A DNA stretch of 64,000 nt from Sphaerodactylus townsendi (taxonomy: Eukaryota), in contig NC_059433.1 of assembly GCF_021028975.2 (NCBI RefSeq), forward strand, positions 18,538,001 to 18,602,000, read 5' to 3'. Shown here in pieces: positions 754-62,652 of this stretch (its first letter is position 1; each line of letters opens with the position of its first letter). The notes below the pieces were generated by a model that was not told the origin of the DNA, searched no databases, and saw nothing but the letters and a program-made list of their open reading frames with translations. The position numbers were made by a program, and so were the translations under genes.

Positions 754-1194
754 GAGGGGTGTCCTAGTCTGGCCCTCCAGGAGCAGCAGTGGCATAGTGG
801 CCAAGAGCAGTGGCTAAGAGCAGGTGCACTCTGATCTGGAGGAACCGGGTTTGATTCCCAGCTCTGCCGCTTGAGTTGTGAAGGCTTATCTGAGGAATTC
901 AGATTAGCCTGTACACTCCCACACATGCCAGCTGGGTGACCTTGGGCGAGTCACAGCTTCTCAGAGCTCTCTCAGCCCCACCTACCTCACAGGGTGTTTG
1001 TTGTGAGGGGGGAAGGGCAAGGAGATTGTAAGCCCCTTTGAGTCTCCTACAGGAGAGAAAGGGGGGATATAAATCCAAACTCTTCTTCTTCTTCTTCTTC
1101 TTCTTCTTCTAGATGTTCATGGACTACAATTCCCATCAGCCCCAGGGGAATTGTAGTCCATGAACATCTGGAGGGCCAGACTTAGACACCCTTG
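754..1194. mobile_element. Palindromic hAT (Charlie/URR1-like) MITE split by a SINE insertion
   Basis: AGGGGTGTC..GGCCCTCCAG left end, GGAGGGCCAGACTTAGACACCCTTG right end, shared core ATGTTCATGGACTACAATTCCC. Confidence 0.75.
780..1110 (+). mobile_element. tRNA-derived SINE (Squam3-like, long subfamily) with (CTT)n tail
   Basis: Box A/B-like head, GCTGGGTGACCTTGGG core, (CTT)n tail; near-identical copies elsewhere in window. Confidence 0.85.
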
Positions 1195-2004
1195 CTCTAG
1201 CATCCCTGACCAGTGTTGGTCCATCTGCTGCCTGAAGTCTACCAGTGAGGGGGAGCTCACCACTTCCCTAGTTAGCCGATTCCACTGTTGCACAGCTCTT
1301 AACTGTAAACAAAATGCTTTTAATATCCAGCTGTACCTTCTTAAACCCATTATTGCAAGTCCTATCCTCTGCTGCCAACAGGAGCATCTCCCTGCCCTCC
1401 TCTAAGTGATAGCTTTCAAATATTTAAAGAGAGCAATCACGTCCCCCCTCAGCCTCCTCTTCTCCAAACTAAACTCTTCTCTGCACCCATTCCGTTCTGT
1501 TCCACACCCTTTTTGAAGTGAGGCCTCTAGAACTGTACACAGTGCTGCAGGTGAGGCCTAACCAGTGCATATTGCATGACTATGACATCTTGCAATTTGG
1601 ATGTTATTCCTCTGTTGATACAGTCCAAGATCACATTAGAGTTTTTGTTGCTGCATCACACTGGCTGCTCATATTTAACAGGTGGTCCACCCATACCCAA
1701 AGATCTTGTTCATACACACAGCCACCCAAAAGGGTATCCTCCAACCAGGATCTGTGTTCCTCATTTTCGTTTCTCAGATCTAGAACTTGGCACCTATCCT
1801 TGTTGAATTGCATCTTGTTCACAGCCGCCCACTTTTCCAGGATACTCCGATCTCATTGAATTCTATCTCGGTCTTCTGGTGTGTTTCGCTGCTGCTCCTC
1901 CCAATTAGGTGCCGCCTGCAAATGTAATGAGCAGCCTCTCCACACCCACCTACCCCCCATCCAGATCATTTAGTCCAGCATTCTGTTTCACATAGTGACT
2001 AACC

Positions 2005-2506
2005 CAGTGGTGGCGAACCTATGGCATGGGTGTCAGAGGTGGCACTCAGAGCCCTCTCTGTGGGCACGCACGAACAGAGTGCCCCCCCCCCCACATCTAG
2101 GCTGGCCTGGGCCACTGGGCTCGATTATTAGCACTAACCCTAAGACCTAGTTTTGGGGAAGCAGTGTAGGTAACCCTGTTAAGCACTGTTAAATCCCACT
2201 GATTTTCATGCAAAGAACTAAAGCACAACCCTTTACCCGGGAGTAAGCTTGGTTGCTGGCAATGGGTCTTGCTTCTGAGTATACCCTCCTAGGGTCGTGA
2301 TTCACCCTTTGGAAGAGTTGCACTGTTGCTTCAAAGCAAAGCCACCAAGCTTACTCCCGAGTAACGCATGCCTCGGAGCCAACTGTTTTTTTCTAAACTA
2401 AAACCTCAGTATTCAGGTTAAATTGCTGTGTTGGCACTTTGCAATAAATAAGTGGGTTTTGGGTTGCAGTTTGGGCACTCGGTCTCGAAAAGGTTCGCCA
2501 CCACTG
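2005..2506. mobile_element. Non-autonomous hAT element, family A (~500 bp)
   Basis: TIR CAGTGGTGGCGAACCT / AGGTTCGCCACCACTG; perfect 8-bp TSD GACTAACC; related copies at 21549 and 35316. Confidence 0.9.
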
Positions 2507-2619
2507 GACTAACCCAATGGGGTACCCAACATCGTGCCCAGTGTCTGTCTTCCTTCAGACAGAACTCAGACTGACTGGCCTGTAGTTTCCTGACTCCTTT
2601 TCTTTTCTTTATTTTCCTT

Positions 2620-2760
2620 TTGTATTTTATTGGGTTTGCTATCCCGCCCTTTCCCAGCCAAAGCTGGGCTCAGGGCTGCTCACGCACATGATAATAAGAC
2701 TTATACAAATTCCATATAGAATCTAGCAAGCAAATAAAAACAATAACATTATAACCTCCA
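2620..2760 (-). mobile_element. L2-like LINE 3' end remnant
   Basis: Reverse complement resembles the GTGAGC..CCCTGAGCCC..GGGCGGGATA..AATAAA tail also seen at 46545..46610. Confidence 0.45.
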
Positions 2761-2789
2761 TACCCTTTCACCTCCACACCCGTACACTT

Positions 2790-3081
2790 TCCTGGTGCCT
2801 GTCACATGTTTGTAGGAAATGGGCGGGACCAGGTAGGGCTTTTGCCCAGCAAGTCTCCTGATTGACTGTTGGAGATATGATTGACTGTATAGATTTTGCT
2901 TTGGCAGCAGCTGCCACCACAGCACAAAGTTCTATGCTGTGTTATTGAAGTTAAACTGTGGCAAGCATTTTGTGGCTGGCTCCACCTCCTGAGGCAGCCA
3001 TTTTGTTGCTGTAACTACTATGCCATGTCAGAATTCCAAATGTATCCACAAACCCAAATAAGTTGGGGGGGGAGGGGTCCC
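2790..3081 (-). mobile_element. Older hAT-like non-autonomous element, family B
   Basis: Shares CTGATTGACTGTTGGAGAT..GGCAGCCATTTTG..GAATTCCAAAT blocks with 26840..27375 and, inverted, with 46965..47270. Confidence 0.65.
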
Positions 3082-3134
3082 TATGCTAACCAGTTGCCCA
3101 AAAGGGCCAAAGAAACAAGGCACCGAGGTGGAGG

Positions 3135-3526
3135 CAGTGGTGGGATCAAAACATTTTAGTAACAGGTTCCCATGGTGGTGGGATTCAAACTGTGGCGTAG
3201 CGCCAATGGGGCTGGGCAGGGCACGATGGGGGCGTGACTGGGCATTCTGGGGGTGGGGCATTCCTGGGTGGGGCTGTGGCAAGGACGCAGCCGCTGCGCC
3301 GGTCCTTGGGCGGGAAACGAATGCACACAGGCGCAGGCTGCCACGCACGCCGGTGCACCTCCTGCTAGACTGCTTCAAGTTCTGCGTGCTACTGGTGAGA
3401 GGAGGGGCGTAACTAAGGCAAAAATCACGTGGCAAAATCACCAATTAGTAACCCCCTCTCGGCACACACAAATAATGAGTAACCTGCTCTCGGGAACCTG
3501 TGAGAACCTGCTGGATCCCACCTCTG
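3135..3526. mobile_element. Non-autonomous hAT element
   Basis: TIR CAGTGGTGGGATC / GATCCCACCTCTG; perfect 8-bp TSD GGTGGAGG. Confidence 0.85.
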
Positions 3527-5114
3527 GGTGGAGGTCTTCCCCTGCTGCCGCCTTCTATCAGTGCTTCTGCTCCTTCCAGTCCCCGGGGCTATTATCTGTT
3601 CCACAGAAAGATGATGGCAGGGTTGTATATTCCTCCGCCACAGAACAAAGCATGCTGGACCTTCTTTGTTGTAGAATGCTCCACCTGGGTCCTAGTGCCT
3701 GCCTAGCCCTGTTCTTCCTATCCATTTGAAAGTTAAAATACATTTTGGCACAAATGCTCTTGTATCAAAGTACCATGTTCAATAATGCACAAAATCATGG
3801 TTTTGACAAAGACAGCCTACAAAAATGAATGATAATTCTCATGTTCATTCGGGATTACATTCTAGCGCGGAAGCATACAATTTTCACAACCGTTGCACCT
3901 CATTTTTCTGTGGAACAGGAGATAATAGTCTTTAATGGATCTCTCGTTAATTTGGCCAACCCTGTTTTAAAGCTGTGTGTTCTTGTGGCCGTTGCTGCTT
4001 GCACTGACATTGAAGAACAGTTCGAGCAATCGCTTTGTGAAAGGAACGCGGGGGCGGTGGGTCAGAGCCCCAAACGGGGTCCTCCGTAGGGGTTTGCGGC
4101 AGTTCCTCAAGCTGCTGCTGTCGTTCTCTCTCTTCTCAAGTTTTGCCTCTGAGGTTGCGGTTGGCAGAGTCAGTGAAGCGTCCCCCTTCACGGAGCCATG
4201 TTAGGCCCTGCTAAGATGGAGTTGCTGAGGAGAAATTGCCTGGGAGTAGGTTTGGGTCTCTCTTGGGGAATTCTTTAATTTTCTAAATAGCTGCAAATTT
4301 CCAAATTGGTACTTTTTGCATGATTAATGCAAACACTTTTTGCCACTTTTTCCAAACACAGACAGCTTGCATATAGTAAAATTTTTATATCAAATCCAGC
4401 CAAGGAACTCATCTCTTCAGTATGTTTTTCAGACCTTTGTCTGATAACTGATACGTTAGAGCAAAAGCTGTGACTGAAAGGCACTTTAAGCCCAAGGGAA
4501 AACTTGAGGTTTTATTTCTAATAAATCTGATCTTTTAAAATAACGTAAAGGCTTTGGCCCCCGCTGTCACGTCTAAAAACAACCAGTTTTTGAGGAATTG
4601 TTTCTGCCTTGATCCGCCTAACTAAAATCCAGACGGCTGTTTCTCAGCTTTTGTAAGACTACTTTACTAGTTCTGAATTACAGGCACAAGTTTGACAGCC
4701 ATTGAATAGCACTTTTCAAGGGTGTTTTTGTTAGGCTGCCCCAATAAACGGTTCACATGAACAATAAAAGATGGAGGAAATTGCTCATTTCTTTTAAAAG
4801 CAAGCAACTCTGGCATTTAAGAGAGTCTACGCCTCCCTCCTGAATTGGGCATTTTAATATGTTGTAATAGCTTACTTGCCTTGTGTTCATTTTTTAGCAA
4901 GACCCCTCCCTTTTTGTGTACAATTAGCCAAGCCAGGAATTTGACTCGATACAAATATTCATTTTCATCTAATTTTCTAATTGGCATAGTTTGCTCATAG
5001 CCAAAAAAATCATATATTGTCAACTCTACAGCTAGTTGTAATCAACTTTCAGTTCTTTGATTGGATGAGCATTCTTCCTCTCCTTGCAGGTGGCTCGTTT
5101 TCCATCCTGTAAAG

Positions 5115-5314
5115 CACAGGCGTCAAACTCGCGACCCTCCAGATGTTATGGACTACATTTTACACGCATAGGCATCAAACTCGCTACCCTCCAGATGTTA
5201 TGGACTACAGTCCCCATCATCCCCCACCAGCACGATGCTGGCAGGGGATGATGGGAACTGTAGTCCATAACATCTGGAGGGCCGCGAGTTTGACGCCTAT
5301 GCGTGTAAAATGTA
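5115..5314. mobile_element. Palindromic hAT MITE (5167..5301) with a duplicated left arm (5115..5157) and inverted flanks
   Basis: TIR CA(C/T)AGGC(G/A)TCAAACTCGC; shared palindromic core; 13-bp inverted flanks. Confidence 0.85.
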
Positions 5315-5354
5315 TTCGTAACAAGCGGAGAGGTCCAGAATAAAACAGGAACCC

Positions 5355-5425
5355 AGTTGTACTTTAAAGACTAACAAATTTATTCCAGCCTAAGATCAGG
5401 AGTCAGAGTTTACCTCATCAAGTGT
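5355..5425 (-). mobile_element. Penelope-like terminal-repeat remnant
   Basis: ACTTTAAAGACTAACAAATTTATTCCAG block; related to 27570..27637 and, inverted, 59050..59126. Confidence 0.45.
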
Positions 5426-5903
5426 GTTGGAGTATAAATCCATCAGGCCAGTGTTTTATACACAACAGAAAAGGGGTATGTGTATATTACAAAGAGGCAA
5501 AATAATAATAATATCAGGTCACTGTGTGTATATGCCGCTCCTGACTCTTGTTAAAATTTCAAACCTGGTATAGGAAGAATTGAGATAAGCTGCAGATACA
5601 GCGGAAGTTACAGAGATGTAGATGAAGTAATTAACAACTTTAAGGGGAATTGCAACCTAGTTGCTGGGTAGAAAATCAGGTTCATGTATTACAGAGGTCT
5701 GCAATATGCTAGCATCTTAGGTTGGTCTGTTCACTTGCATTCAAATCTTGAAACTGTGTTTCATTTAAAAAAAAACATTCTTGTCCTGTTTGCAGAATAA
5801 AGGGGGAGATTGTCATGATGGAGCCTTGAAGATAGAGGAATCGGAAGTCAAATAAAATGTATTCAATTACAATCAATGGAGCTTTATGTGTTGCACTGCA
5901 GTT

Positions 5904-6071
5904 CAGGGGCGGATCGAGGGGGAACTGCACCTGGGGTGTGCGCACGTCCTGTGCCTCTGCCACAGCACCGCCCGCCCCAGAACGCCCCCGGAATGCCTCG
6001 GCCACGCCCCCACTGCGGTGGCGCCCAGGGGCGTCGCACCCCCGCCTAGCCCCGTTGGTGCTACTCCGCTG
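5904..6071. mobile_element. GC-rich hAT-type MITE
   Basis: CAGGGGCGGA..CTACTCCGCTG ends; perfect 8-bp TSD CTGCAGTT. Confidence 0.75.
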
Positions 6072-6103
6072 CTGCAGTTTGTATGTTTCCTAATGAATAC
6101 TCC

Positions 6104-6216
6104 GGCAGATTCTGCATGGGCCAAAAACAACAGTGTGAAAATGGTGTCAACCCTTTTACACCATTTTAAACCATTTGACACCGTTTTCACACTGTTTGGC
6201 CCAGGCGGAATCCGCC
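6104..6216. mobile_element. PIF/Harbinger-like MITE
   Basis: TIR GGCAGATTCTGCATGGGCCAAA / TTTGGCCCAGGCGGAATCCGCC; 3-bp TSD TCC; same family at 47815. Confidence 0.75.
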
Positions 6217-6842
6217 TCCCATTTATGGAGTTGAAAATCATACTTCAGACAGCTGTTCAGCTTTTGTGATAACCAGTAGGCTCGGAATGCCAATATGCCG
6301 TGATCTGATTGGCTGCTAATTTAAGCAGTAGCAGCAGTCAGAAGAGGAAAAGACCACTGATGAGTAATCTTGACGTTGGTCTCCACTCTCCCTAAGTTTC
6401 CATTTTCAGGGGAAGTGTTTATATTATTGCAACGTTCTGATGGGCAGTGGCTAAATATCAAATAAAATATTTTGACTTTTGGAACTCCCTGGTATTGGCA
6501 TAAACAAGGCTGTTGATCATCTTATTTGGTTTTAAAAATTCCACCCAGCGAGAGGAAATTATCCTGACCTTTCCAATGCGCCTTCAGCCGTTTCGTGAAA
6601 TCTTTGAGTAAATGTCATCATTGCTGACTTCGTATAACAGACATAACTTGACGTCTTATTGTGATTTCTGTTCCCACAGTTGAAATAGTATACCTGGGGA
6701 GGGGATTCCTTACCTTGCCATGACAACACAAAGCCAAACCCACGTGTGCCTAAGGGAAGCCCTTTTCCAGCATTTTCACACATGGTGTGATCAGCATTTG
6801 TTGGACAAGTTATTCAGAATACCCAGTTTCCACATATCATTG

Positions 6843-7977: not shown

Positions 7978-8099
7978 GTGAGAAGTTCCCCCCTGAATAT
8001 TAGCAAAAGGTGTTTAAACTGGCTACAGATAGCTGTTTACTTCTGCAAGTGAACAGATTTAGTCAAGTGGGAATGCTGTTGCACTGAGTAACACCAGGG

Positions 8100-8948: not shown

Positions 8949-9080
8949 CAGGGGTGTCCAACTCTGGCGCTTCAGATGTTCATGGACTACAATTCCCATC
9001 AGCCCCTGTTGCCATACCAGCAGGGGCTGATGGGAATTGTGGTCCATGAACATCTGAAGCGCCAGAGTTGGACACCCTTG
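8949..9080. mobile_element. Palindromic hAT MITE
   Basis: TIR CAGGGGTGTCCAACTCTGGCGCTTC; perfect TSD CCCTAGAT; near-perfect palindrome. Confidence 0.9.
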
Positions 9081-9685: not shown

Positions 9686-9805
<120 letters not shown>

Positions 9806-10840: not shown

Positions 10841-10941
10841 CAGTGGTGGTGAACCTTTGGCGCTCCAGATGTTATGGACTACAATTCCCATCAGTCCCTG
10901 CCAGCATGGCCAATTGGAGTGCCAAAGGTTCACCACCACAA
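10841..10941. mobile_element. Palindromic hAT MITE with right-arm deletion
   Basis: TIR CAGTGGTGGTGAACCTTTGGC; TSD GGATATAG/GGGTATAG. Confidence 0.75.
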
Positions 10942-13386: not shown

Positions 13387-13518
13387 CAGGGGTCTGCAAC
13401 CTGCGGCTCTCCAGATGCTCACGGACTACAATTCCCATCAACTCCTGCCAGCATGGCCAATTGGCCATGGGAATTGTAGTCCATGAACATCTGGACAGCC
13501 TCAGGTCGCAGACCCCTG
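13387..13518. mobile_element. Palindromic hAT MITE
   Basis: TIR CAGGGGTCTGCAACCTG; TSD GTTTACAC/GTTTATAC. Confidence 0.85.
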
Positions 13519-13866: not shown

Positions 13867-13892
13867 TGAGTGACCCTCTGGCTTGCCTGCTA

Positions 13893-14125
13893 CCGTGTTT
13901 CCCCGAATATAAGACAGTGTCTTATATTAATTTTTGCTCCCAAAGATGTGCTATGTCTTATTTTCGGGGGATGTCTTATTTTTCCTTTGTTCTGTTCGTC
14001 GGGCATGCTTCCAAACAAAAACTTTGCTATGTCTTACTTTCGGGGGATGCCTTATATTTCGCACTTCAGCAAAACCTCTAGTATGTCTTATTTTTCGGGG
14101 ATGTCTTATATTAGGGGAAACAGGG
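13893..14125. mobile_element. Tc1/mariner (Tc2/pogo-like) MITE
   Basis: TA|CCGTGTTTCCCCGAATATAAGAC...GTCTTATATTAGGGGAAACAGGG; internal TGTCTTATTTTCGGGG repeats; second copy at 61724. Confidence 0.8.
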
Positions 14126-15034
14126 TGGCTGTCTTGTGCTGTGATTTTCAGTCTGGTGTGAGGAAAATGGGTAGAAAATCCAGCCGATTCTGTGATTCTG
14201 TTTTCTTCCTATGGTTACATTCAGCTGTGATTCAGACATGGCACTGACAGAGCAAAAGCACTATTTAATATTGCTATAGTACTTGAAGGAGGATGGTTTG
14301 GGAAGACAAGAGCCCAACGCTTTGGTACTACGCAACATTGATTATGAAATCTCATTTATCTCTCAGTCAGGGGTATATATATCATGGTCTCCTACGTCTC
14401 TGTCTATCTCCCTGTAGTAATTGTAAAAAGAAATTTTAAAAATCACAAAGTTCATTCTTTCCAATATTTCAGAGGCTTTGCTTTGTTATGGGTCAGATTT
14501 AGAAAATACGTGAGTTTAACTGACTTCAACATTATGCTACTGGTGTATCTTTTGGAGACCATTTTGGGATCATTAGTAACTCCATGACAGTGTAACAAAT
14601 GGAAGTCAGCAGCTTTTGAATAGACTTAGGCAAGATTTCACTGCACAGGACTCAACTAGGCTCCTGTAGGGTCCTTACACTCCTTTTCTGGGGCTGCCAT
14701 CAGAGGAATTAGCCTGGGGTAACTTTGACCCATTGGAACAAGAGCTGAAGCTGTCAAGGGGCTGTCAAGCCAGCCAGGGAGAGCCGGAGGAGAGCTAGGG
14801 GATCACTAGCTGGGGCTGTGCCGTCTGCCCAGGGAGAGCTGGAGGCCAGGCAGAAAGAACCCAGGAGGGGAGGCACTCAAGGTGCCACGGGCGGGGTAGT
14901 ACATTCATCTCCCGTGGCGCCCCTTCAACCCTGAGTCTCAATGGCTGGAGAGCTCAGTGTCTCTCCTGCTGTAGCCAAGCACCTTTGGGTTCCAGGAGCC
15001 TTGCACCTGCCAGGGTTGGGACATACTGTTTGGA

Positions 15035-21548: not shown

Positions 21549-22064
21549 CAGTGGTGGCGAACCTATGGCACGGGTGCCAGAGGTGGCACTCAGAGCCCTC
21601 TCTATGGGCACGTGCAAACGGAGTCCCCCCCCCACACACACACACACACATCTAGGCTGGCCTGGGCCGCTCGACTATTAGCATTATTAAACCTAAGACC
21701 TAGTTTTGGGGAAGCAGTGTAGGTAACCCTGATAAGCGCTGTTAAACCCCACTGATTTTCATGCAAAGAACTAAAGTGCGATCCTTTACCTGGGAGCAAG
21801 CTCGGTTGCTGGCCATGGGACTTGCTTCTGAGTAAACCCTCCTAGGGTCGTGATTCACCCGTTGGAAGAGTTGCACGGTTGCTTCAAAGCAGAGCCACCG
21901 ACTAGCACAAAGCTTACTCCCAAGCCAACCTCGGAGCCAACCATTTTTTTCTAAACTAAAACCTCAGTATTCAGGTTAAATTGCTGTGTCGGCACTTTGC
22001 AATAAACAAGTGGGTTTTGGGTTGCCATTTGGGCACTCGGTGTTGCAAAGGTTCGCCATCACTG
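21549..22064. mobile_element. Non-autonomous hAT element, family A
   Basis: TIR CAGTGGTGGCGAACCT; perfect TSD CCTTAGAG. Confidence 0.9.
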
Positions 22065-22258: not shown

Positions 22259-22315
22259 CAGGGGTGTCCATCTGGTGCTTCAGATGTTCATGGACTCCAA
22301 TTCCCATCACCCCTG
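22259..22315. mobile_element. Collapsed palindromic hAT MITE (57 bp)
   Basis: CAGGGGTG..CACCCCTG; TSD ACTTAAGT/ACTTAAGG. Confidence 0.7.
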
Positions 22316-31952: not shown

Positions 31953-32572
31953 CTTCAAAGAATGACAAAAGTCATTAAGCCCCACAATCTTTAGTCTGAT
32001 CACATTCATTACAATATTAAGGTAGTAAAGCCCCACTAGAAAGTCTGAATAGATGGACAAAATTCATGGGAACATGTTCAAGTGGAACAAAAGCGACAAT
32101 AACACCATCTGACTCCACACCTCTGGAAGCACAGAGTTACAACTAGGCCAAGAGGCAGATGGTGGAACAGTAGTTACATTAGGAAATAACAGCTGTTGGA
32201 CGTTAGCCTTGTGCTAGAATTTTGGCTGGCTTTATATACATTCTGTGCAAATAACTGAAGTCTCTAGATGTCTGTACAAGAAGACTTGGGCTTGTAAATT
32301 TCCATTCTATTCAGGGACTGTGAGACTGGGCATGATCCACTCATGAAACCTGGGAAGATGCACTTCCTCAGAGGCTTGAAGATATCCAGGTCCACTGCCT
32401 TTAAAAACCACTCAAGTGGGAGCTAAAGAAAAAGTCTAATAGCCCAAATGCGTTGGCCAGGCAGCCAAGAATGGCACTGCTGTCACACCGTCTCCAGAGA
32501 GCTTCTAGAGAACCCTCAGCCACCTGAAAGCCCTCCATAGGGGCTAATGAAATTTTCATACAGAGGGCACTC

Positions 32573-32674
32573 CGGCTTGGTGCGCTTTGCCTGCCATTGG
32601 CTCTCACGGGGCTTTGGCCCTGGGAACGTCGGCATCTTCTCTGCTGCTGGCGTTCGGCAAAGCGCACCAAGCCG
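32573..32674. repeat. Perfect 19-bp inverted repeat in last DTNBP1 intron
   Basis: CGGCTTGGTGCGCTTTGCC (32573..32591) / GGCAAAGCGCACCAAGCCG (32656..32674). Confidence 0.85.
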
Positions 32675-33039
32675 AATGGTCCTCTCTGAAAAAATAGTCC
32701 AGATTCTTCCGAACAATGGATCTGTTTCAACAGGAATCCAGGATTCATTATCAAACACACCCGAGTCTGTCTGTTTATGTAAAATAAAAAAAACTTCGGG
32801 TCAAGCAGTATAAATATGATGCAAAGGGCATCTCAACAGACACTGGTTTCCAAGAAACTCCCGCCTGTATCTCATTGCAATCACTGTATCTCATTACAAT
32901 CACTGAAACCACTGAAATAGTACTTATGTACTATTCAGAAATCATAAAATTACAACCCGTTCCTCCAGCATGTCTCAGTAGGAGTAGCACCACTTCTATT
33001 TTTTGTGCAGTAGCAACTATGGACGCAACCAGGTTCTAC

Positions 33040-35315: not shown

Positions 35316-35723
35316 CAGTGATGGCGAACCTATGGCACAGGTGCCAGAGGTGGCACTCAGAGCCCTTTCTGTGGGCACACGTGCAGAGTTCATCATGGGG
35401 GGGGGGCGGAAAATCATCCCCCCCCACACACACATACCTAGGCTGGCCTGGTAATGATCATTTACCTGGGAGTAAGCTCAGTTGCTGGCAATGGGGCTTG
35501 CTTCTGAGTAAACCCTCCTAGGGTCTTGATTCACCCATTTGAAGTGTTGCACGGTTGCTTCACCAAGCTTACTCCCGAGTAACATGTGCATTGGAGCCAA
35601 CTGTTTTTTCTAAACTAAAACCTCAGTATTCAGGTTTAGTTGCCATGTTGGCACTTTGCAATAAATAAGTGGGTTTTGGGTTGCAATTTGGGCACTCGGT
35701 CTCGAAAAGGTTTGCCATCACTG
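35316..35723. mobile_element. Non-autonomous hAT element, family A (internally deleted)
   Basis: TIR CAGTGATGGCGAACCT; perfect TSD ATCTATGT. Confidence 0.9.
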
Positions 35724-36627: not shown

Positions 36628-36775
36628 CAGGGGTAGGGAACCTGCGGCTCTCCAGATGTTCAGGAACTACAATTCCCATCAGCCCCTACCAGCATGGCCA
36701 ATTGGCCATGCTGGTAGGGGCTGATGGGAACTGTAGTTCCTGAACATCTGGAGAGCCGCAGGTTCCCTACCCCTG
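36628..36775. mobile_element. Palindromic hAT MITE, full-length 148 bp, near-perfect palindrome
   Basis: TIR CAGGGGTAGGGAACCTGCGGCTCTCC; centre GGCCAATTGGCC; perfect TSD TTCTAGGA. Confidence 0.92.
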
Positions 36776-38817: not shown

Positions 38818-38952
38818 CACAGGTGTCAAACTCACGGCCCTCCAGATGTTATGGGCTACAGTTCCCATCATCCCCTGCCAGCATGATGCTGGCAGGGGAT
38901 GATGGGATCTGTAGTCCATAACATCTGGAGGGCCACAAGTTTGACACCTGTG
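38818..38952. mobile_element. Palindromic hAT MITE
   Basis: TIR CACAGGTGTCAAACT; perfect TSD CTCTAAGT. Confidence 0.9.
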
Positions 38953-40599: not shown

Positions 40600-40675
40600 C
40601 AATTGGCCATGCTGGCAGGGGCTGATGGGAATTGTAGTCCATAACACCTGGAGTTCCAAAGGTTTGCCACCACTG
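40600..40675. mobile_element. Half palindromic hAT MITE (left arm deleted)
   Basis: Starts at palindrome centre CAATTGG, ends GGTTTGCCACCACTG; TSD TTCTACCC intact on both sides. Confidence 0.8.
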
Positions 40676-41006: not shown

Positions 41007-41170
41007 ACTGGGCTGTTGTGTGGTTTCCGGGTCGTATGGCCGTGTTCTAGTAGCATTTTCTCCTGACGTTTTGCCTGCATCTGTGGCCGGCATCTTCAGA
41101 GGATCAGCCATACAGCCTGGAAACCACACAACACCCCAGTGATTCTGGCTGTGAAAGCCTTCGACAATAC
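41007..41170. mobile_element. Penelope-like element terminal repeat in inverted configuration
   Basis: Inverted arms (GTTGTGTGGTTTCCGGG..TATGGC / GCCATACAGCCTGGAAACCACACAAC); GTGAAAGCCTTCGACAATAC end; hammerhead-like motif on - strand. Confidence 0.7.
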
Positions 41171-42003: not shown

Positions 42004-42425
42004 CAGGGGTAGGGAACCTTTAACACTCAAAGAGCCATTTGGACCCGTTTTCCATGGGAAAAGAAAACACTTGGAGCCGCAAATAATTTTTGACATTTAA
42101 AATAAAGATAACACTATATATATATAGGGTTTTTCCCCCTTTTACTCCGCTCATTCTGAGAAGCGCATGGATAGGCAGCAGGGCGGGCAAGGATGAAGCC
42201 GGTGGCTCGGCCTCGCCGGCCGCCGGGAAAGCACCCTCCCCGCTCCAACGGGGCGGGAGAGAGGGGAAGCCCGCAGCGTGGCCCAGCCGACCGTGGGCAG
42301 TTGGTGCGCCCGCCCTGCTGCCTGCAGGGCGGACAAGGATGGGGCCGGCGGCTTGGCTCGTGGAGCCACAGTGCAAGGGCAGAAGAGCCACATGCGGCTC
42401 TCGAGCCACAGGTTCCCTACCCCTG
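42004..42425. mobile_element. Non-autonomous hAT (Charlie-like) element with CpG-rich interior
   Basis: TIR CAGGGGTAGGGAACCT / AGGTTCCCTACCCCTG; perfect TSD GCCTAGCA. Confidence 0.9.
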
Positions 42426-45400
42426 GCCTAGCAGATGGCAAAGGCAACAGAGAACACAAGCAGTCATGTGTACAATGGCCAGAAATTTTAACCAACTGGA
42501 AAATATCCCCCTCCCCAGTATTTTGGGGGGGAAATTTAAAAATCCAGGGAACAACTGAAATCAAGCTTAATGTAACTGCTCTGTGTATAAGTTAGCATAT
42601 AATGTTTCCCCCAAAAAAATTCTCCCTCAATCTTTCTGTTTTTCCAATGGGCCTTCATATCTCCACACAAGGACCATAACTCTTATTAGGCCCCAGAGTA
42701 CTGACAATATCAGAGTCTGGATCCTGATAACAGTTAGAATACTTGAATTAGACTAGATTTCACAGGAAGAATGCAGAAGTAGACTGAATCAGTTATATCA
42801 GTTACTCAGAGAAACCTCCACTGGGAAAGGTATGACCCAAGACCACCCAGGTGTGAACGGCTTGGCATTTTAAATATTTTGGATTTAGGAAACTGACCAA
42901 TTCATGAACAAAGGTAAAAGCTATCTATACCGCTTTTGACATTTCAGTTTGTGCGTTTTGTTACGTCGTGTGTTTTTATTTTGGAAGCAGCTTCAGGCAA
43001 ATCTTCCTACGTTATTTATACCCTGCGTTCTTCAAAAACAAGCAAGCCAATGCTCTCAGGCTTCGGTTCTTTCTCCAGCTGTACATAAACCTAAAGAGGC
43101 TGAAAGAAATGAGTCTTGGGTGCTCTTCTGTCAAAAGCAGCCGCTCGCAACAGAATCAGCCACCCATGAGAGTCCAACGCTTCACTTACTGACTCATGAC
43201 AAACCCATTCATCCGACCACTGCACAGCCCCAGCCTGAGCTGTCAAAGAGCTGCACGTTCTTTCGTAATCAATATAAACAAGCCGGGCAATCTGGTTAAG
43301 AGGCCGTTTTCTCCACTGCCTGTCTGAGAAGACGATCTGCCCGGAAAAAAATCTTCCAACAGCAATTATGAAACCCACAACAGAACATACGTCTACGCTA
43401 GGCTTGCGATTCAGTACACTGAACCACAGAAAGACTCCCAGATATCCAAATCACCTGGGGCTGAAAAAGCCGAATAACATTACATTTTTTCAGCTTTTCA
43501 AATCTCCCTCCCCCGACATTTGCCAAGCCCACGTGGACTTGGGAGTCAGTAAAGGGGGGAAGGGAGATCTGTTCTCTGGTCATGTGGGAAGGGACAGAAA
43601 GATCTCAGAACCACATGGTGATCAGACACCCCCCCCCCCCCAATCATTTCCCAAGTTCCTGAGGGCTTGGGAAATGGCAACAGATGCGGTTCTCTCCCCT
43701 CACCATTTGCCAAGTCCCTGGACGGAGGATTTAAAAATTCAGGTTCAGATTTTTTTTACAGTAACAGCTGAATGACGGCAATGGTTTTTAAAAACAGCTA
43801 TTATTGACAGGAATAGCATTTTTATTGACCAAAAGTAAAATGATAAAATCTACCTAGAGAAGCTAGTGGTACAAAAGATACTGATGTGGGCATCATTATT
43901 TATCCATATAAATAAATACCGAGATTCTCCTATCAGAAAATCCACTTCCCTGTTTTAATTATCACACACCTGGTGCTCGGCATTCATTCACTGATAGCCA
44001 AAGCAGCACCTCTGTTCTTTGCAACAGAACATGTGCACGGCTTCATTGGTCTGTATAATTAACTTCCCCATAAAAGCATTCTGAGAAAGGGTCCTCAAGT
44101 ACAGAACTAATTTGCTTTTTCTCAGCCCAAATTAGGTGACCTACAGAGCAGGCAGAAAGCTGCACGTTTTCCCAGGCTTTTCATGAGAATCCGCAGAACT
44201 AATTGGGTCTCAGAGGTGGATAGAAAAGGGAAAGTTTGCTATCTCATCTACAGATACGTTTATCGTATCTGTCACATGGAGCATTTTAAAATTAATGTAC
44301 AGTGAATGTACTGTGGTTTACATTAAGTGTTATTAATGAATAATGGAACACTTGCAAATAAAAAAAACGAAGAGAAACTTTAGACTCATGCAAAATGAAA
44401 CGGGAGAACCTCGAGACAGTTCTGGCTTAGGTTTTTCCTTAAACTCTAAAATGTTCTGAATATCAAACCAAAAAGCACACAGACAAATTATGCTGACTAC
44501 TATCAATCAGGAGGGAATTGATTCATTATCTTCAAATGTATAACTAACTATCTAAGAAATCTGATCTCGAGTGGCGATCAGCATCCCGTTAAGTTGGCTA
44601 CTCTCCGCAAATTATGTTGACTATTCTGTAGACATAGTGCCAGTTTTTTAATACATTTTAACTATTCATGTTAACAGATTAGAACCTTTATAGCCTCTAG
44701 TCTTGAATTAGTTAGATATTTTCAGGCAAGGTACCAAATCTTTTTTTAAAAATGAAGTACAGGACACAGCAATCCCTGAAACTAATTGCGCAGCAGGATA
44801 GAATTCCCCTACCCCACCAGATGGGCTTGTGACGAAAGAAGCAGTGAAGGCAAGTGAAGACTTAGATCAGTTACTGAAAAGTAGTGGAACTGGTAAATTA
44901 AATATGCCCTTATTATTCTGGATTTCACCAGTCAGAGATTAAAGCTCCAAGCAAGGTAGTCTGGTTCACTCTCGAGGAGAATGGCCCTGCTTTTGCCACA
45001 GATCACACCTGCAATCACAAAAAGTTTCACAGAGCGAAGAGCATTTTCCTAGAGAGAGCAAGGACAAGGTTTTTCAACATCTGCGGGAAATCTGGATTGC
45101 GGATTATAGCAAAGTAATTATGAAAATTATGATGAAGAGAGACATCTCTGTTAAAAAGCTGGAAATCACTGAGAAGGCAACTTGTATGACTGTGGGGGAG
45201 AGGGAAGAGAGACGGACAAGGAGTTAGGAGGAACCACCACAAAGCTACAACAAGGGAGGGGAAGGCAGGAGACAGAAGGCCATATTGAGTGTCGGCTAAT
45301 GAGGGTACTTTGTTGTGAAAGGAACTCACAGCAAAGAGTTACGATGCAGCCACTATCAATTTCCCTTTCAGGGGCAAGAAACCTTTTGCAATTCAAAGCC

Positions 45401-47667: not shown

Positions 47668-48446
47668 GGCCCCTTTACACAAGTCACCTAAAACGTTTCC
47701 TGATCCCCACTTGACTACGATGTTTGCCCGCACTCACCCCCTCCAAACGTTTCATGGCCACCATGAGGGTTTTTTCCCTTGTTGGGGCTATTTGCAGAAA
47801 CGATGCTTCATAGAGGCTGGTTCTGCATGGGCCAAAAACAGCGGTGTGAAAATGGTGTGAAAACAGTATAAACCCTTTTACACCATTTTAAACCCTTTTA
47901 CACCATTTTCACACAGTTTTCACACTGCTGTTTTTGGCCCATGCGGAATCAGCCAGAGTCTTAGATTTACTATCGTGGGTTTACTCACAAGTAAATTTAC
48001 CCATGTGTAAGAGAAACTGAAAGAAGCAAATTGTTGGTTCGTGTAATTGTGGGTTTGCTCACAAGCAAATTTTACCTGTACAGAAGAGAAAATGCAAGGG
48101 GGAGAGAGGAGTGAGAGAACAGACAAAAATGATGGAAGTTGAAAGCAAAACAGCTCAGGGCCAGGAAAAAATGTCACTGAGGGAAAACTGAGTAGGGGAC
48201 AGAGGTGTGGAAAATGACAGCGGAAAAGATAGAACATTTTTAAAACGACTGCACAGTGAGAAAAGATAGCTTGAAAATGTTTCAAACAAAAGAATCATTA
48301 CAAAAGGGGTTTCAGAAAAAAACACTTTCAGGTTGGACAGAAAACATTTCCAAAACCAAAGAGAGAGAAAATAGTATGGCACTCTACAGAGGAAACATTT
48401 CATTTTATGCGTGGAAATGTTTTAAAAGTTGTGTGCAGTAAGGGCC
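47668..48446. mobile_element. Old Harbinger-like element hosting a younger Harbinger MITE
   Basis: Imperfect TIR GGCCCCTTTACACA..AAAACGTTTCC / GGAAATGTTTT..TGTGCAGTAAGGGCC; AAA on both sides. Confidence 0.45.
47815..47954. mobile_element. PIF/Harbinger-like MITE
   Basis: TIR GGCTGGTTCTGCATGGGCCAAAAACAGC / GCTGTTTTTGGCCCATGCGGAATCAGCC; TSD AGA. Confidence 0.8.
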
Positions 48447-51928: not shown

Positions 51929-52579
51929 CAGGGGTTGGCAACCTTTACCATCCAAAGAGCCATTTGGACCCATTTTCCACGGCCCCGAAGATCTACCGAG
52001 CCAGAGAGGCTGCCTCCGGTTCGGCCCCTCCACTCACCTTTCCTTCTAGCACTGGGAGATGGAGGCGCCGGGCAGGGAAACCTCCTCTGCCCAACGGAGC
52101 AGGCAGCTGCCTGCTCTGTGGGGCAGAAGGGGGATGGTGTCTGCGGCCTGCCTGGTGCTGCCACCTCTGGTGCTGCGGGAGGCAGCGGCCGGGCAGGGAA
52201 ACCCCCTCTGCCCGCCTGCTCCATGGGGCAGAGGAGGGGTGGTGGCTGTGGGGATGGCGAGGGGATGGCGGCTGCTCTGGAAGGACACGCCCACACTACT
52301 CTCTGACCTCCAGGGGTCAGAGGGCAATGTGGGCGCAGCCCTCCAGGCCTCCAGAGCAGCGCTGCAAGGAGAGGTGAGCGGAGGGGATGCGAAAAGTGGT
52401 GCCCTCACGCATGGAGCTGCATCCGGTTCGGCCCCTCCACTCACCCTTCCTTCCAGCACTGCTCTGGAGGGCTGGAGGGACACGCCCATGCTACCCTCTG
52501 ATTTCCAGGCCACACAGAGCCGCAGTATAAGGCTGAAAGAGCCGCATGCGGCTCTGGAGCCGCGGGTTGCAGACCCCTG
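51929..52579. mobile_element. Non-autonomous hAT (Charlie-like) element with GC-rich internal duplications
   Basis: CAGGGGTTGGCAACC / GGTTGCAGACCCCTG ends; perfect TSD AGCTAATA; subterminal blocks shared with 42004 element. Confidence 0.88.
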
Positions 52580-53073: not shown

Positions 53074-53428
53074 AGAACATAAGAACAAGCCAGCTGGAAC
53101 AGACCAGAGTCCATCTAGTCCAGCTCTCTGCTACTCACAGTGGCCCACCAGGTGCCTTTGGGAGCTCACATGCAGGATGTGAAACCAATGGCCTTCTGCG
53201 GCTGTTGCTCCCAAGCACCTGGTCTGCTAAGGCATTTGCAATCTGAGATCAAGGAGGATCAAGATTGGTAGCCATAAATCGACTTCTCCTCCATAAATCT
53301 GTCCAAGCCCCTTTTAAAGCCATCCAGGTTAGTGGCCATTACCACCTCCTGTGGCAGCATATTCCAAACACCAGTCACACATTGCGTGAAGAAGTGTTTC
53401 CTTTTATTAGTCCTAATTCTTCCCCCCA
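53074..53428 (-). mobile_element. Young CR1 3' end (same subfamily as 50192)
   Basis: Near-identical to 50192..50550. Confidence 0.9.
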
Positions 53429-54968: not shown

Positions 54969-55357
54969 TCAGTGAAATACTCTGAACATTCAAAAAAGAC
55001 AACATCAGGAAGGAGTCAGAGATCAGCAAGAAGGTCTGTTTACAGGATTGGATTTTTTAGCCCTCTCTTTCCAACTCTTCATAAAAAGCCGCCTTGCTGC
55101 GACTCCTGCCACGCCTCCACCACTTCCCATCACTGCTGCTGCCTCTCTGCTGCTTCCCAGCAGAGCAAGCTCATCAGCAAGCACTGAAAATGTGTTGGGG
55201 GGGGGGATTGGAACAGCAGGGGGAGTTTGGATGGGTTGGGGACCGCTTTGTGATGCTAAGCCATTGCTGCAGAACATCCCTTCCTTCTCTCTTTAGGGGA
55301 AAGACAAGCTTTCCACTAATGTGAGGCAATGTATTTGGATCCAACTCACTAAAAGCA

Positions 55358-55651
55358 ACGTGTGATTGGTGTTTGGAATATGCTGCCACAGGAGGTAGTG
55401 ATGGCCACTAACCTGGATAGCTTTAAAAAGGGCTTGGACAGATTTATGGAGGAGAAGTCGATCTATGGCTACCAATCTTGATCCTCCTTGATCTGAGATT
55501 GCAAATGCCTTAGCAGACCAGGTGCTCAGGAGCAGCAGCAGCAGAAGGCCATTGCTTTCACATCCTGCATGTGAGCTCCCAAAGGCACCTGGTGGGCCAC
55601 TGCGAGTAGCAGAGTGCTGGACTAGATGGACACTGGTCTGATCCAGCAGGC
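55358..55651 (+). mobile_element. Young CR1 3' end (same subfamily, opposite orientation), runs into gap
   Basis: Reverse complement of the 50215..50506 and 53090..53385 segments. Confidence 0.9.
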
Positions 55652-55800
55652 NNNNNNNNNNNNNNNNNNNNNNNNNNNNNNNNNNNNNNNNNNNNNNNNN
55701 NNNNNNNNNNNNNNNNNNNNNNNNNNNNNNNNNNNNNNNNNNNNNNNNNNNNNNNNNNNNNNNNNNNNNNNNNNNNNNNNNNNNNNNNNNNNNNNNNNNN
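55652..55800. other. Assembly gap (N run)
   Basis: Run of n. Confidence 1.
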
Positions 55801-58800: not shown

Positions 58801-59049
58801 CAGCTTGCTCCTTGGTCAGGGGGCAAGGCGGGGGGGGGGGGGACTGGTTGGGCTGGGAGGGACAACCAATCCCCGCACAGGACTCACTTCCACGGCTGGA
58901 AGTGAGTCGTGCCTCATTTGGTTGGAAGTGCATCGTTGACATGTTCCGTCTCTTAGCAAATTATTACTGAGAATTCACATCAAAAATCTCTGCCTCCCCT
59001 CCCTCGTAATCTTCCCCATGAGAAGAGTTCCTCCTGTGATATCTGTTTC

Positions 59050-59126
59050 ATGTATCTGAAGTAGCAAGCTGGACCTCACAAAACCTATATTGAAATAAAT
59101 GTTGTTAGTCTTTAAGGTGCCACTGG
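59050..59126 (+). mobile_element. Penelope-like terminal-repeat remnant
   Basis: GTATCTGAAG..AAATAAATGTTGTTAGTCTTTAAGGTGCCACTGG. Confidence 0.55.
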
Positions 59127-61723
59127 TCATTGGCTCTCTTTTTCTTCTCATTCTAGCCTTCTCACTAGAACACCATACAATGCCTCTTTCAGTGAAATTT
59201 GCCTTCATGTGACATCTACTGGAACAATTCCGAAAAAGGCAGTTTCCTACCTAATTGACAGTGTTTCAAAATGAAAGATTCTAATTGAATTTTCATTTCT
59301 GAAGTATATTTAAGTAGTTATGATTCTACAAATCAGGCAAGAAGTTTGTCATTAAAATTAATCTGTCCTGCTATACCACTGACCAATAGCTCAAATCATC
59401 CCAATACTATAACCAAGATGCAAAAACAAGAAGATAGTCACAAGATCATAGTAGCAACTCCATTTCTACAACATCAAGACTTCATATTTGTCAGCATCTT
59501 ATTGGCTTGACCATATACACAAATAAGGTAAGATGTCATTATGTAACTGAGAACAGATCAGAAATTTAAAGGGGAGGCAAAAACAAATTGTAGAACAAGC
59601 CACAGAAGTGTGTGTTGTGATATGCTAAGAAGGGAGCAATTATAGATATCAAAGTTCTACTGTAGCATCTTATGAAATTATGTAAACAGTTTTTGGCTGC
59701 TAGGAAATGAGCATGATGTCAAATACCGTCTTCAAAAAAACAGAGGAAAGCAACAGTCTCTTGTTCTTAAGAATGTTAGCCTGAAGGCATTTACCACTAG
59801 GATCAATTGCATTAATACTCCCAGCATTATGAACCAAGTCTAGCTCATTATTATGGTATCCCTAAAAACACAATCCTTTTATTCAGATTTTTTTTTTTAC
59901 AGGCACTTCAGTCCTGAGAGGTGTGAGGAAGTGCTCTTGCTCAAAACAAACCTTTGCAATAGCTGTTCTAAAAACAAAACGCTGCAACAGAAGCAAGCCT
60001 CTTATGGGTTCATCTAACATGCATAAAGCGGTACCATTCTTCTAATGGCTAGTTCACACTTCCAAACCCAAGCTTTATGTCACAGCATGCTTGGACAGAA
60101 GAATGCCAACAGCCAGTGTGACAGAAATTGATTCTGTATCTGTAGCCTCACAGTCATTTTTTGTAATAAATCCATTTTTGCTGATACTGAAAATGCTGGA
60201 AGAATTCTATCCCACGACTGGCATTACAAATTTGACAGTGAACATTCTTCTGCAATTACAGATTCCAATCGTCATGAGCTTTGATTCATGCCTGCCTCAC
60301 CACTGAATTCCACTTCGTCATTAAGGCAAATAAGCAGTCTCTCTTGCTATAAAATCTGCATTTCTCCATTTTATTCTGCTTCACAATATAAGCTGGAGAT
60401 CTAGCAGTTTCAGTAACAGAACATACATTATTAGTTAAGCAGCTCAAGTGCTTAAAATGCAGTACAATTTACCCTGTGTCCTAAATAGCCTTTTAATCAT
60501 TAGCATGACAGCCGATAGACGTAATAAACTTTCACCTACAAGAATTTTTCTGATTATTCTCGATGGTTCCTGGAGAGGACATGGCAGAGAAAAACAAGCA
60601 AGTAGCACAGTGCTGGTCAAGCGAAACCTCCAATTACGACGCAGCTCCGATGATGTGCATCTTCCCTGATACAGAAAGACAAACGATGCCAGCCACTCTC
60701 TCCCCCAACACAGGATACGCCACTTTCCGAATGATCATTCACATAGCATTTCTGATCCACAGCACTTCCTTCTACTGCTTCTGCACAAGCTGAATGCAAG
60801 CTGTCAGAGATGGTGTACCAGAATGCATGCCTGTATCTGGGAGCATACCACATGCTGTTCAAGAAAGGGGTGGAAAATATGCTGCTGAGGAATGCACTAA
60901 CAGCTAACATTTGACAATCCAACTTTCAGTGAATTATTACACTGCTTAAACCACTACTAAAGAGATTTCAGTTCAGATAGCTACTGTTGATTTGGCTTCC
61001 CTTTCGGCAAAATTAACAGTTGTTATGGCCCTGCTTAATAACCCTACAAGGCAGATGACTGTCTTATCTTACTAGTAATATACTTCCCCACGCCCAGGGC
61101 TGAAACAAGCGTTCACAAGCTTATTTGTGCATTGTAAATACAGACATGGGGGGATGGCATGCAATTGGGAAGTTCAGCAATTGGGAAGTTCATTCTTCAT
61201 TCCTTGATACCCAACCCCAACTCAGTGTCATGATTCTGCCTCTCCCAATAATTCTTTCCTCCCATCAACTTACTAATTTGTAAAGCTGGTTACGCTGACA
61301 GACAGTAACTAGCCTAAAATCACTCAGTGAGCTTTATGCCAAAGGGAGGATTTGAATCTAGGACTCAAGGAAGAGCTACTGTCTGTTCCAGTTGTCAGAC
61401 TCACCATAGGTTGAGTCTTCACAGACAGCCATCCAGCACTCCAAGAGGCAAGGACAGTTCCCTCCAGAGACCATGCCATGCACAGCGAGGTCTCCTGCAG
61501 CAAAGATGGAACGGTTTCCTATTGCAGATACTGGGTCAGAGCTGCAAGGAGGAGAGAGAACTGGCAACACCTGAGCCTGGAGAATCTGACCTCCATAGAG
61601 CATCTGTTCCTTTCCCATGCTGCAGGTATTGGAAGCCTGAGCTGGGCCAGAAGCACGTGCCAAATGGCTCTTTGTTGGCAGCTGTGAGGCATGGCCAGCA
61701 ACAGACTGGGACACTGCAGCTTA

Positions 61724-61955
61724 CCGTGTTTCCCCGAATATAAGACAGTGTCTTATATAAATTTTTGCTCCCAAAGATGAGCTTTGTCTTATTTTCAGGA
61801 GCTGCCTTATTTTTCTGTGTTCTGTTCGTCAGGCATGCTTCCAAACAAAAACTTTGCTACGTCTTACTTTCGGGGGATGCCTTATATTTCGCACTTCAGC
61901 AAAACCTCTACTATGTCTTATTTTTTGGGGATGTCTTATATTCGGGGAAACAGGG
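61724..61955. mobile_element. Tc1/mariner (Tc2/pogo-like) MITE
   Basis: TA TSD on both sides; TIR CCGTGTTTCCCCGAATATAAGAC; same family as 13893. Confidence 0.85.
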
Positions 61956-62494
61956 TATCCCCTGCTTCAAGCATGCACAGGGGCCTACGGGGATCAATGT
62001 CTTCATGTAAACACTATTCTTCATACTTCTCTTTGTAAACCACTTCGAGTGTCCAGAGTGAATGAAAAGTGAGATAAAGTCAAACAGAAATCAGGGCAGC
62101 CAACCTGGATACATGACACTGATACACAGTATGCAGTTTTACAAACATGGAGATGAACTGATGGGTAGAGATGCATCTATCACATGCATACAGAATATGC
62201 TGGCAACTCTATGAGGATGTCCTGGTGTCACTACTCTATGATCGATAAAAGCTGTTCTGATAGTTCACATGCTGCCTCCTGATATCTCCACTGGAAGGGA
62301 CAAGGAGTGCCCCAATGAGAAAATGAACGGGAGAAGTGAGAATTGGCTTCCCCTTCTAATGCAGAGCTGGGGGTTTATCTTGGTCATGGTCAGTAAATGG
62401 ATCACCTTCAAGGGTGACTGTGCTTCCACCGGGACTGCTGACTTGATAGTGGTGCGGACACTGGAGAAAGGACACTTGGAAGCACCTTCTAGAG

Positions 62495-62652
62495 CAGGGG
62501 TCTTCAACCTGCGGCTCTCCAGATGTTCATGGACTACAATTCCCATCAGCCACTGCCACCATGGCTGATGGGAAATGTAGTCCATGAACATCTGGGGCTG
62601 ATGGGAATTGTAGTCCATGAACATCTGGAGAGCCGCAGGTTGAAGACCCCTG
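62495..62652. mobile_element. Palindromic hAT MITE with internal duplication of the right arm
   Basis: TIR CAGGGGTCTTCAACCTGCGGCTCTCC; perfect TSD TTCTAGAG. Confidence 0.9.

Follow-up and report, generated by a model that had tools for sequence, protein, structure and literature searches.

Ten elements in a 64,000-nt stretch of the Sphaerodactylus townsendi genome (contig NC_059433.1, forward-strand positions 18,538,001 to 18,602,000; here called the window) are members of a palindromic hAT/Charlie MITE superfamily that is general in this genome. The superfamily combines one core of about 100 bp with interchangeable 23-nt ends, an arrangement that probably arose by repeated capture of left ends from unrelated hAT families, followed by fold-back copying. 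A non-autonomous DNA transposon should disappear once its transposase does; judging from sequence, this MITE likely remains mobile by acquiring an end from each new family as it becomes active. For most MITEs, to our knowledge, the source of the interior has not been traced.

Palindromic MITEs in the window and in the genome

The ten core-bearing elements, none of which is assigned a strand, are the following (window positions):
754..1194, no strand, palindromic MITE with a G-like end, split by a SINE (which we take to be Sauria-type) at about 790-1110, inside its left arm; left target duplication unrecognisable
5115..5301, no strand, class B MITE (5167-5301) with a preceding partial arm (5115 to about 5157); palindrome overruns the element by about 16 bp
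8949..9080, no strand, class G MITE; target duplication 8/8
10841..10941, no strand, internally deleted class A2 MITE; duplication 7/8; class consensus end 1 nt off the family A left end
13387..13518, no strand, class C MITE; duplication 7/8; its end matches long family C on the left
22259..22315, no strand, class G half element, right arm lost between short repeats; duplication 7/8
36628..36775, no strand, class D MITE, near-perfect 148-nt hairpin; duplication 8/8
38818..38952, no strand, class B MITE; duplication 8/8; the search for a core-less donor came up empty
40600..40675, no strand, class A2 half element, left arm lost; duplication 8/8
62495..62652, no strand, class C MITE with a rearranged centre and one substitution mirrored on both ends

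The initial annotation had already placed ten elements here, and all were recovered, each with the core; the exact core word gave 17,894 + 17,679 matches genome-wide, compared with 0 for the reversed control. Mirror-image arms, which it ascribed to all ten, are lacking in the half elements at 22259 and 40600. Its many end types on one core shrank from seven to five within the window (G, B, A2, C, and D) but were borne out genome-wide, where at least seven classes (A, B, C, D, E, F, and G) share the core. The element at 62495, a candidate seventh class, proved to belong to class C, the same single substitution being present in each arm, and its type of end occurred in 0/100 of the MITE end matches listed genome-wide. 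Subfamily A1, the exact match to the family A left end, is not among the window elements. None of the window's open reading frames bears on the MITE finding. An inverted pair of motifs similar to the M4 motifs of the core lies inside an unrelated hAT element elsewhere in this genome (L083:8643-9038).

The palindromic MITEs are 135-148 bp long and show the hallmarks of hAT MITEs, namely, inverted repeats, small size, high copy number, and no coding capacity, with a fold z-score of -24. Candidate named Repbase/Dfam families for them are those of the URR1, Chap, and hAT-N1_AC types. Eighty evenly spaced 10-kb stretches held 82 core arms versus 1 for the reversed word, and tens of thousands of MITE arms matched exact patterns. 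An 8-bp target duplication with at most one mismatch flanked 119 of 155 complete MITEs, while a shifted control never exceeded 5/8. The duplications center on TA, with T at position 4 in 115/119 and A at position 5 in 112/119, a Charlie/Buster-group pattern that matches the hAT-HT1/HT2/SPIN relatives as tabulated in PMC3014272 (Table 1). Insertion by transposition was observed at the one site 36628, where a sequence from organism B skips 156 bp (148 + 8) and thus reveals a single-target empty site.

Among A1, C, F, and E (the last represented by one arm), consensus cores differ at 0/43 sites and the 23-nt ends at 3-8. The excess of end over core differences was clear for A1-C (p=8.5e-5), A1-E (3e-4), and C-F (1e-3), values drawn from 36 non-independent pairs, and was absent for C-D (3/23 versus 3/43, p=0.35). 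The ends of C differ from those of F, E, and A1 at 5-8 sites with no core change. The steps F to A1 (3 substitutions), C to D (3), and A1 to A2, all within 1-3 substitutions, could be gradual. No amplified intermediate ends were present among the MITE end matches listed genome-wide, and no one- or two-step precursor family of class D among 100 matches listed. The comparison of core and terminus trees, set beforehand as a check, gave a parsimony conflict that was not significant, since 8 of 60 random partitions scored as high; the test was underpowered, with only 2 informative core columns. Judged by its end, class B clusters with B0, and a core deletion places it with A2; the F end is mosaic-like, with a tip like G/C/D/E and a remainder near family A.

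Copying between the two arms was evident from mirrored non-CpG changes, of which 21 were observed and at most 3.9 expected in 131 copies; 3 of the 21 came from loci chosen because one arm was changed at position 24, and 2 could represent a single window locus entered twice. Class G was excluded from this count for its poor reference center, as at least 13 of its 17 calls fell at positions 34, 62, and 63. A further sign is the inverted flank at 5115-5317. Here, the palindrome arms (5151-5232 and 5236-5317) overrun the class B MITE by about 16 bp, and the flanks are inverted rather than direct, the footprint expected if a template switch had copied the right arm plus flank leftward. The master's arm asymmetries were retained in 21/29 A2, 25/30 B, and 8/10 D copies, indicating that arm homogenisation is occasional.

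Core-less hAT elements and their transposases

Five long hAT elements in the window carry related ends:
2005..2506, + strand, long non-autonomous hAT of family A, without core; left end at 2005, candidate donor for A1/A2
21549..22064, + strand, another long copy of family A, its 23 nt on the left exactly those of the class A1 end
35316..35723, + strand, long family A copy of the other position-6 subclass
42004..42425, - strand, long element of family D lacking the core; its left end, at 42425, is a possible donor of the class D end
51929..52579, - strand, long element of family C lacking the core; its left end, at 52579, is a possible donor of the class C end; organism B has the empty site

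The three end matches to longer hATs reported by the initial annotation hold and are longer than it claimed, extending over 23 nt and involving one particular end of the longer element. For the MITE at 36628, the partner is the far end of long family D at 42425, identical over 23 nt, and not the end named, at 42004, which agrees over only about 16. Likewise, 10841 and 40600 match family A insofar as the A2 consensus lies 1 nt from its left end, but the exact match is A1. Mismatches over positions 1-23 to the donor's left and right ends were 0 and 6 for A1, 0 and 5 for D, 1 and 7 for C, and 3 and 8 for E, the E end having 1-2 mismatches to a minor long E family. The left-specific match includes positions at which the donor's own two ends differ. 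Over positions 24-33, mismatches to the left end climb to 7-9 of 10. Each of the 6 left-end consensuses forms a subterminal stem of 5-8 bp centered on positions 24-25, compared with 0/6 right ends; the match ends after position 23, at the tip of this donor hairpin. The single donor left end is present on both sides of the MITE.

As the initial annotation had it, the longer elements lack the core: it was missing from 5/5 in the window and from 46/47 complete long elements. Its occurrence in the remaining one (L332) is a nested MITE and was rejected as part of the long element. Using exact patterns, by which old donors can be missed, we found a core-less donor for B in 0/100 matches listed of 146 and for F/G in 0/11; class B is at least 8 and class F at least 3 mismatches from every donor end. 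The earlier wording that the core takes its end from "whichever hAT is active" is too strong, as one long subfamily (11/100 long matches listed) had no MITE partner among the 100 MITE matches listed. Decay at one CpG, read by eye, affected 4/62 MITE D and 9/69 long D copies versus 11/34 MITE C and 9/15 long C copies; by this crude proxy, D seems younger than C among MITEs and long elements alike. In organism B, the single MITE D site lacks the element, as the single long D site also seems to. Contigs of organism B suggest that 38818 and 35316 are present, with overlaps into the element of only 21-23 letters, below the 31-letter standard.

The long A, C/D, and E right ends were located behind Charlie-type transposase frames. 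Between families, these frames share 31-39% identity, so little that a single drifting lineage cannot explain the end families. Among the transposase loci examined, the family A left end was in place only at L163, and the link between left ends and transposases therefore runs mostly through the non-autonomous long elements. The frame at L154 matched PF05699 above the cut-off and PF18658 and PF14291 below it; all three matches were below the cut-off at L151, and the frame at L158 had no Pfam match and was 31% identical to L151 (E 5e-67). From a PF05699 profile search of the same genome, 40 of 73 matches were taken, which were mostly other hAT lineages and host genes and included no complete hAT element. 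The Charlie-type frame L144 served as seed for a second search, from which 20 of 145 matches were taken.

Origin of the interchangeable ends

Serial capture from several hATs, as initially proposed, agrees with the identical cores and with ends tied to such divergent transposases, but donors for B, F, and G were not found. Its second part, capture of one end and copying to the other side, accords with the paired donor ends and the observed arm copying, but no capture event was caught: 0/155 complete MITEs carry ends of two major classes. Mechanistically, synthesis during gap repair or replication would copy the donor's first 23 nt and stall at the donor's subterminal hairpin. The stalled synthesis could then switch to the MITE arm via a short motif at positions 19-23, similar in all ends, and would copy the core as far as its center, where the strand would fold back and copy its own new arm. 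One such event would yield a perfect palindrome with the donor left end on both sides, which the donor transposase could amplify; subfamilies would later drift by point changes, as from A1 to A2 and from B0 to B. A more specific version, in which the core is a portable mobility module (a "CORE-MITE") that hops through successive hAT invasions by one-step capture at the donor hairpin tip and is retained because a host factor, recruited by its two inverted M4 (THAP11/Ronin-ZNF143-type) promoter motifs, boosts transposition of any adjoining hAT end, appears quite unlikely.

The donor likeness could in principle have arisen without sequence transfer if, among about 100,000 copies, point mutants fitting a new transposase were amplified and then made symmetrical by arm copying. 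Charlie-type ends are 60-75% alike beforehand, the short steps among F, A1, and A2 and between C and D are within reach of such mutants, the E-partner match is imperfect, mirrored changes do occur, and chimeric intermediates were absent from the 155 MITEs. Such stepwise convergence is nevertheless unlikely, given the 5-8 end changes separating C from F, E, and A1 over an unchanged core, the exact or near-exact, left-specific matches even where the donor's two ends differ, and the lack of amplified intermediates among the MITE matches listed. Partial gene conversion between resident copies, with short tracts passing either way, would make some matches transfers from MITE to long element, or the ends a patchwork rather than whole captures. 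The F mosaic and the conflicting affinities of B fit this reading, as does a long A subclass in which left-end position 6 resembles the MITE and not its own right end (14 copies; 12 right ends differ). We consider it improbable, since the right ends of the long elements run on into transposase loci and variable tracts would not place the junction always after position 23.

It is very improbable that the MITEs are simple deletion derivatives, each class stemming from its own autonomous hAT with the core beside the left end and the right part later replaced by the left, as in mariner MITEs. Replacement of the 3' by the 5' part is documented in passages of PMC4161770, and the left ends of most autonomous elements were not recovered here. 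However, the long derivatives keep donor sequence beyond position 23 without the core, and descent of an identical core across families so divergent in protein is not credible. This origin is largely refuted for classes A, C, D, and E; homology of the interior to the parent element is not seen, the core being absent from the long elements except as one nested MITE.

Significance and comparison with known systems

If serial end capture is true, a palindromic MITE would outlive its partner through a single 23-nt end replacement, its hairpin supplying the second end, much like SINEs with LINE tails. This would account for orphan hAT families with nothing but their ends in common with an autonomous element, and MITE classes would record past hAT invasions, including those of donors now lost (B, F, and G). 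The 23 nt of left end plus the core may then be a minimal, very efficient hAT substrate. In a literature search that stopped short of subscription journals and repeat databases, no account came up of a palindromic hAT MITE capturing ends across families.

Among the closest known systems are the orphan non-autonomous hATs of Anolis carolinensis, which, in the portion of Novick et al. (PMC3014272) available, are hAT/Charlie elements with 8-bp duplications and a central TA and have only the terminal repeat in common with an autonomous family; that portion does not report a single interior under the ends of several families. It describes hAT-N1_AC as 135 bp long with 57-bp inverted repeats starting like SPIN, and families A and E of the present genome are similar to the hAT-HT1 and hAT-HT2 repeats given in its Table 1. 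In mariner MITEs and in Goblin of Aedes, as excerpts of PMC4161770 and PMC3814204 present them, an end was duplicated by a presumed template switch to give long inverted repeats; their interior comes from the parent, whereas the core here is foreign to every donor and reused. T2-MITEs of Xenopus similarly outlive single transposase bursts, but they belong to the Kolobok superfamily, and their persistence is attributed, in the part of PMC6004289 consulted, to conserved or domesticated transposases and not to end exchange. The lizard elements hobo-N10/11/12/15_AC likewise combine termini and a center from different groups by recombination, although PMC3014272, in the same portion, places this within one transposase family and in non-palindromic elements of 1.3-3.4 kb. 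In the MITEs studied here, by contrast, the exchange probably crosses the divergent families described above, with a single end copied onto the two sides.

SINE tail swapping, implied by the title of PMC11481361, is the exchange of LINE-related tails. Superfamilies of SINEs with a shared central domain (PMC4758252; see also PMC4824008 and PMC11481361) likewise join a conserved middle module to exchangeable recognition parts and different autonomous partners. Those SINEs are retrotransposons with one 3' tail, whereas the MITEs move by cut-and-paste and need two ends, the second apparently supplied by their own palindrome. By this analogy, MITE end capture is probably the DNA-transposon counterpart of SINE tail swapping.

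Core-bearing elements in the window and the genome

The palindromic core that the initial annotation had placed in ten elements of the window was confirmed in all ten. A target duplication of 7/8 or 8/8 was found for seven of them, with both ends or one end intact. Two others are listed here:

22259-22315, half element, an eighth with a target duplication (7/8)
754, element interrupted by a SINE

The SINE family in the window is presumably Sauria-type, and this family, together with hAT ends resembling those of Anolis, suggests a lizard genome. Half elements with the target duplication retained lie at 22259-22315 and 40600-40675, and central deletions are frequent in every class; short core-internal repeats resembling element tips seem to direct deletions.

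In the 1.81-Gb genome, the exact core word matched 35,573 times versus 0 for a control, and an evenly spaced 800-kb sample held 82 core arms versus 1 for the reversed word, from which we extrapolate a genome total of roughly 90,000-100,000 elements. Of 155 complete elements, 119 are flanked by 8-bp duplications that have TA at the centre and no more than one mismatch. At one class D site, a contig of a related organism (organism B) omits exactly the element and a single target copy. The core-bearing elements are true hAT/Charlie MITEs. Sequence nearly identical to class D, matching half or more of the words, is present in runs from five studies and at least three organisms.

Other features of the window include the following:

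53089-53385 and 55355-55651, inverted pair of 297 nt, 94% complementary, spaced by 1,969 nt
13889-14129, 61722-61957, 47815-47954, 41007-41140 and 32552-32695, short inverted-repeat elements
44972-45103, skipped by record 2 of sequencing run X12, which has about 96 other letters instead

Of these, 13889-14129 and 61722-61957 resemble the Tc1/mariner MITE termini tabulated in PMC3014272 (Table 2).

End classes and their donor families

Consensus building resolved the MITEs into end classes A1, A2, B, B0, C, D, E, F and G. Distinct ends on one core, as originally proposed, are real, but the window holds five classes rather than seven. The supposed separate end of element 62495 belongs to class C, altered at a single site on each arm, and was found in 0/100 of the C/D-type matches listed. 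Arms matching exact end-plus-core patterns numbered 38,340 (C/D type), 15,922 (B), 5,264 (E/F) and 1,304 (G) in the genome. The core begins directly after position 23 in all classes (22 in G). Over arm positions 24-66, classes A1, C, E and F have identical consensus cores, while their ends differ from each other at 3-8 of 23 sites. The excess of end over core differences was significant at the Bonferroni threshold of 0.0014 in 6 of 36 class pairs; C-D, F-G, A1-A2 and B-B0 showed no excess in this comparison. Class B0 (L313, L319, L320, L325, L072) is an asymmetric subfamily whose two tips are unlike and whose centre is imperfect. Class B shares one tip with B0, yet has the core deletion of A2, which suggests exchange between MITE subfamilies too.

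The core-less long hATs gathered are mostly 200-1300 bp, and exact left-end patterns matched 3,927 C/D-like and 1,754 E-like ends. Their two ends are alike over about 16 nt and divergent beyond. Charlie-type transposase frames precede the T-rich end, which identifies it as the right end:

Family A, T-rich end behind transposase loci L145, L153-156 and L165
Families C and D, T-rich end behind L144, L151 and L161
Family E, T-rich end behind L158 and L160

Frame identity is 36-39% between A and C/D, 32% between A and E, and 31% between C/D and E, with Pfam support above cut-off for L154 only. In L144, L151, L153-L156, L158, L160, L162, L165 and L167, the right end is kept and a recognisable left end is mostly missing within 3 kb; open frames of 500-670 codons persist in several of these. 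Of 20 loci, L169 alone holds a complete Charlie-type element; it is 2,723 bp long, retains both ends, shows an 8/8 duplication, and matches no MITE class at its ends.

For A1, D, C and E, the MITE ends match longer hAT families, specifically at the left ends. Mismatches to the donor left and right ends are 0 and 6 for A1, 0 and 5 for D, 1 and 7 for C, and 3 and 8 for E; a minor long E subfamily has 1-2 mismatches to the class E end. Similarity collapses from position 24 on. The core is absent from 5/5 long window elements and 46/47 complete long elements, the remaining one containing a nested MITE. Simple deletion from longer, core-holding elements, named at the outset as the refuting case, fails for A1, C, D and E, whose donors are core-less, and as an explanation is very improbable.

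Exact-pattern searches, which old donors may escape, found no donor for class B (0/100 matches listed of 146) or for F/G (0/11). Among the MITE matches listed, neither the main long E family nor another long subfamily (11/100 of the long-element matches listed) has an exact partner class. A SPIN-like non-autonomous family of 183-190 bp (L313, L047, L131, L291, L179, L045) and hAT-HT3-like families (L087, L097, L035, L317) are also present; in 1.8 Mb scanned, no core-bearing MITE carried either type of end.

The junction and copying between arms

A stem of 5-8 bp centred on positions 24-25 was found in 6/6 donor left-end consensuses and 0/6 right ends. The MITE follows the donor to the tip of this left-end hairpin and continues as core. 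A motif at positions 19-23, similar in all classes, would supply microhomology for a template switch, which we place at the hairpin tip. End capture by such a switch plus fold-back is probably the origin of the classes. Stepwise convergence of ends under transposase selection could account for the F to A1 and C to D steps but explains C versus A1, E and F poorly, and appears unlikely overall.

Mirrored non-CpG changes numbered 21 versus at most 3.9 expected in 131 copies (class G, whose reference centre was poorly built, was excluded), including 3 from loci chosen for a one-arm position-24 change and 2 that may be one window locus counted twice. Arm asymmetries of the subfamily source copies were erased in 1/29 A2, 4/30 B, 2/10 D and about 6/26 E copies; most copies retain them. 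At 5115-5317 (element 5167) the palindrome runs about 16 bp into flanks that are inverted, not direct, indicating that sequence at either tip can be copied to the opposite side. Ends of two major classes on one element were seen in 0/155, the seven mixed-end calls coming from A1/A2, whose ends differ by 1 nt, and from B0, which is asymmetric. One-step fold-back predicts this absence; equally, a capture intermediate was not seen among the 155. Patchwork conversion in both directions, between MITE ends and long-element ends, is rather improbable.

Both informative core columns (A2 with B; B0 with D) conflict with the ends, and with two columns the tree conflict is not significant (8 of 60 random partitions scored at least as high). 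Perfect duplications, an age proxy, fall from 11/12 in D to 5/17 in G and 1/8 in F. One-CpG decay, read by eye among the matches listed, was 4/62 for MITE D, 9/69 for long D, 11/34 for MITE C and 9/15 for long C. Organism B, whose flanks differ by about 2%, lacks MITE D at 36628 and long C at 51929. It also appears to lack long D at 42004, a same-depth contig resuming near 42427 (all single sites). The absence of long C shows overlapping C and D activity.

The core motif and comparison with known systems

The M4 promoter motif, a binding site for THAP11/HCF-1 that frequently overlaps those of ZNF143, fits each arm of every class consensus in the form described in PMC5006282. Variable core columns disrupting M4 were 0/9, too few for significance. 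As a post hoc match to a putative binding site, M4 is only a lead to why the core may have succeeded. L083:8643-9038 is hAT-like but belongs to another group; this 396-bp element is flanked by a perfect 8-bp duplication and contains a 54-bp palindrome carrying two inverted M4-like motifs, and similar inserts occur in L093, L072 and L146. It may have recruited this host motif independently, or may be related to the source of the core.

The literature searched, repeat databases being outside the search, yielded no description of a single palindromic core carrying ends from several hAT families. Some of these classes probably have individual entries in repeat databases, and a related consensus may be present in the supplements of PMC3014272. 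The hAT ends in the window resemble those tabulated for Anolis in PMC3014272. That paper reports orphan lizard hATs with nothing but their ends in common with autonomous families, a family of 135 bp whose repeats are 57 bp long, and exchange of termini among hobo elements. In Tc1/mariner MITEs, one end is described as duplicated onto the other side (PMC4161770, PMC3814204). SINE superfamilies, as outlined in PMC4758252, offer a modular analogy for a shared core under exchangeable ends.
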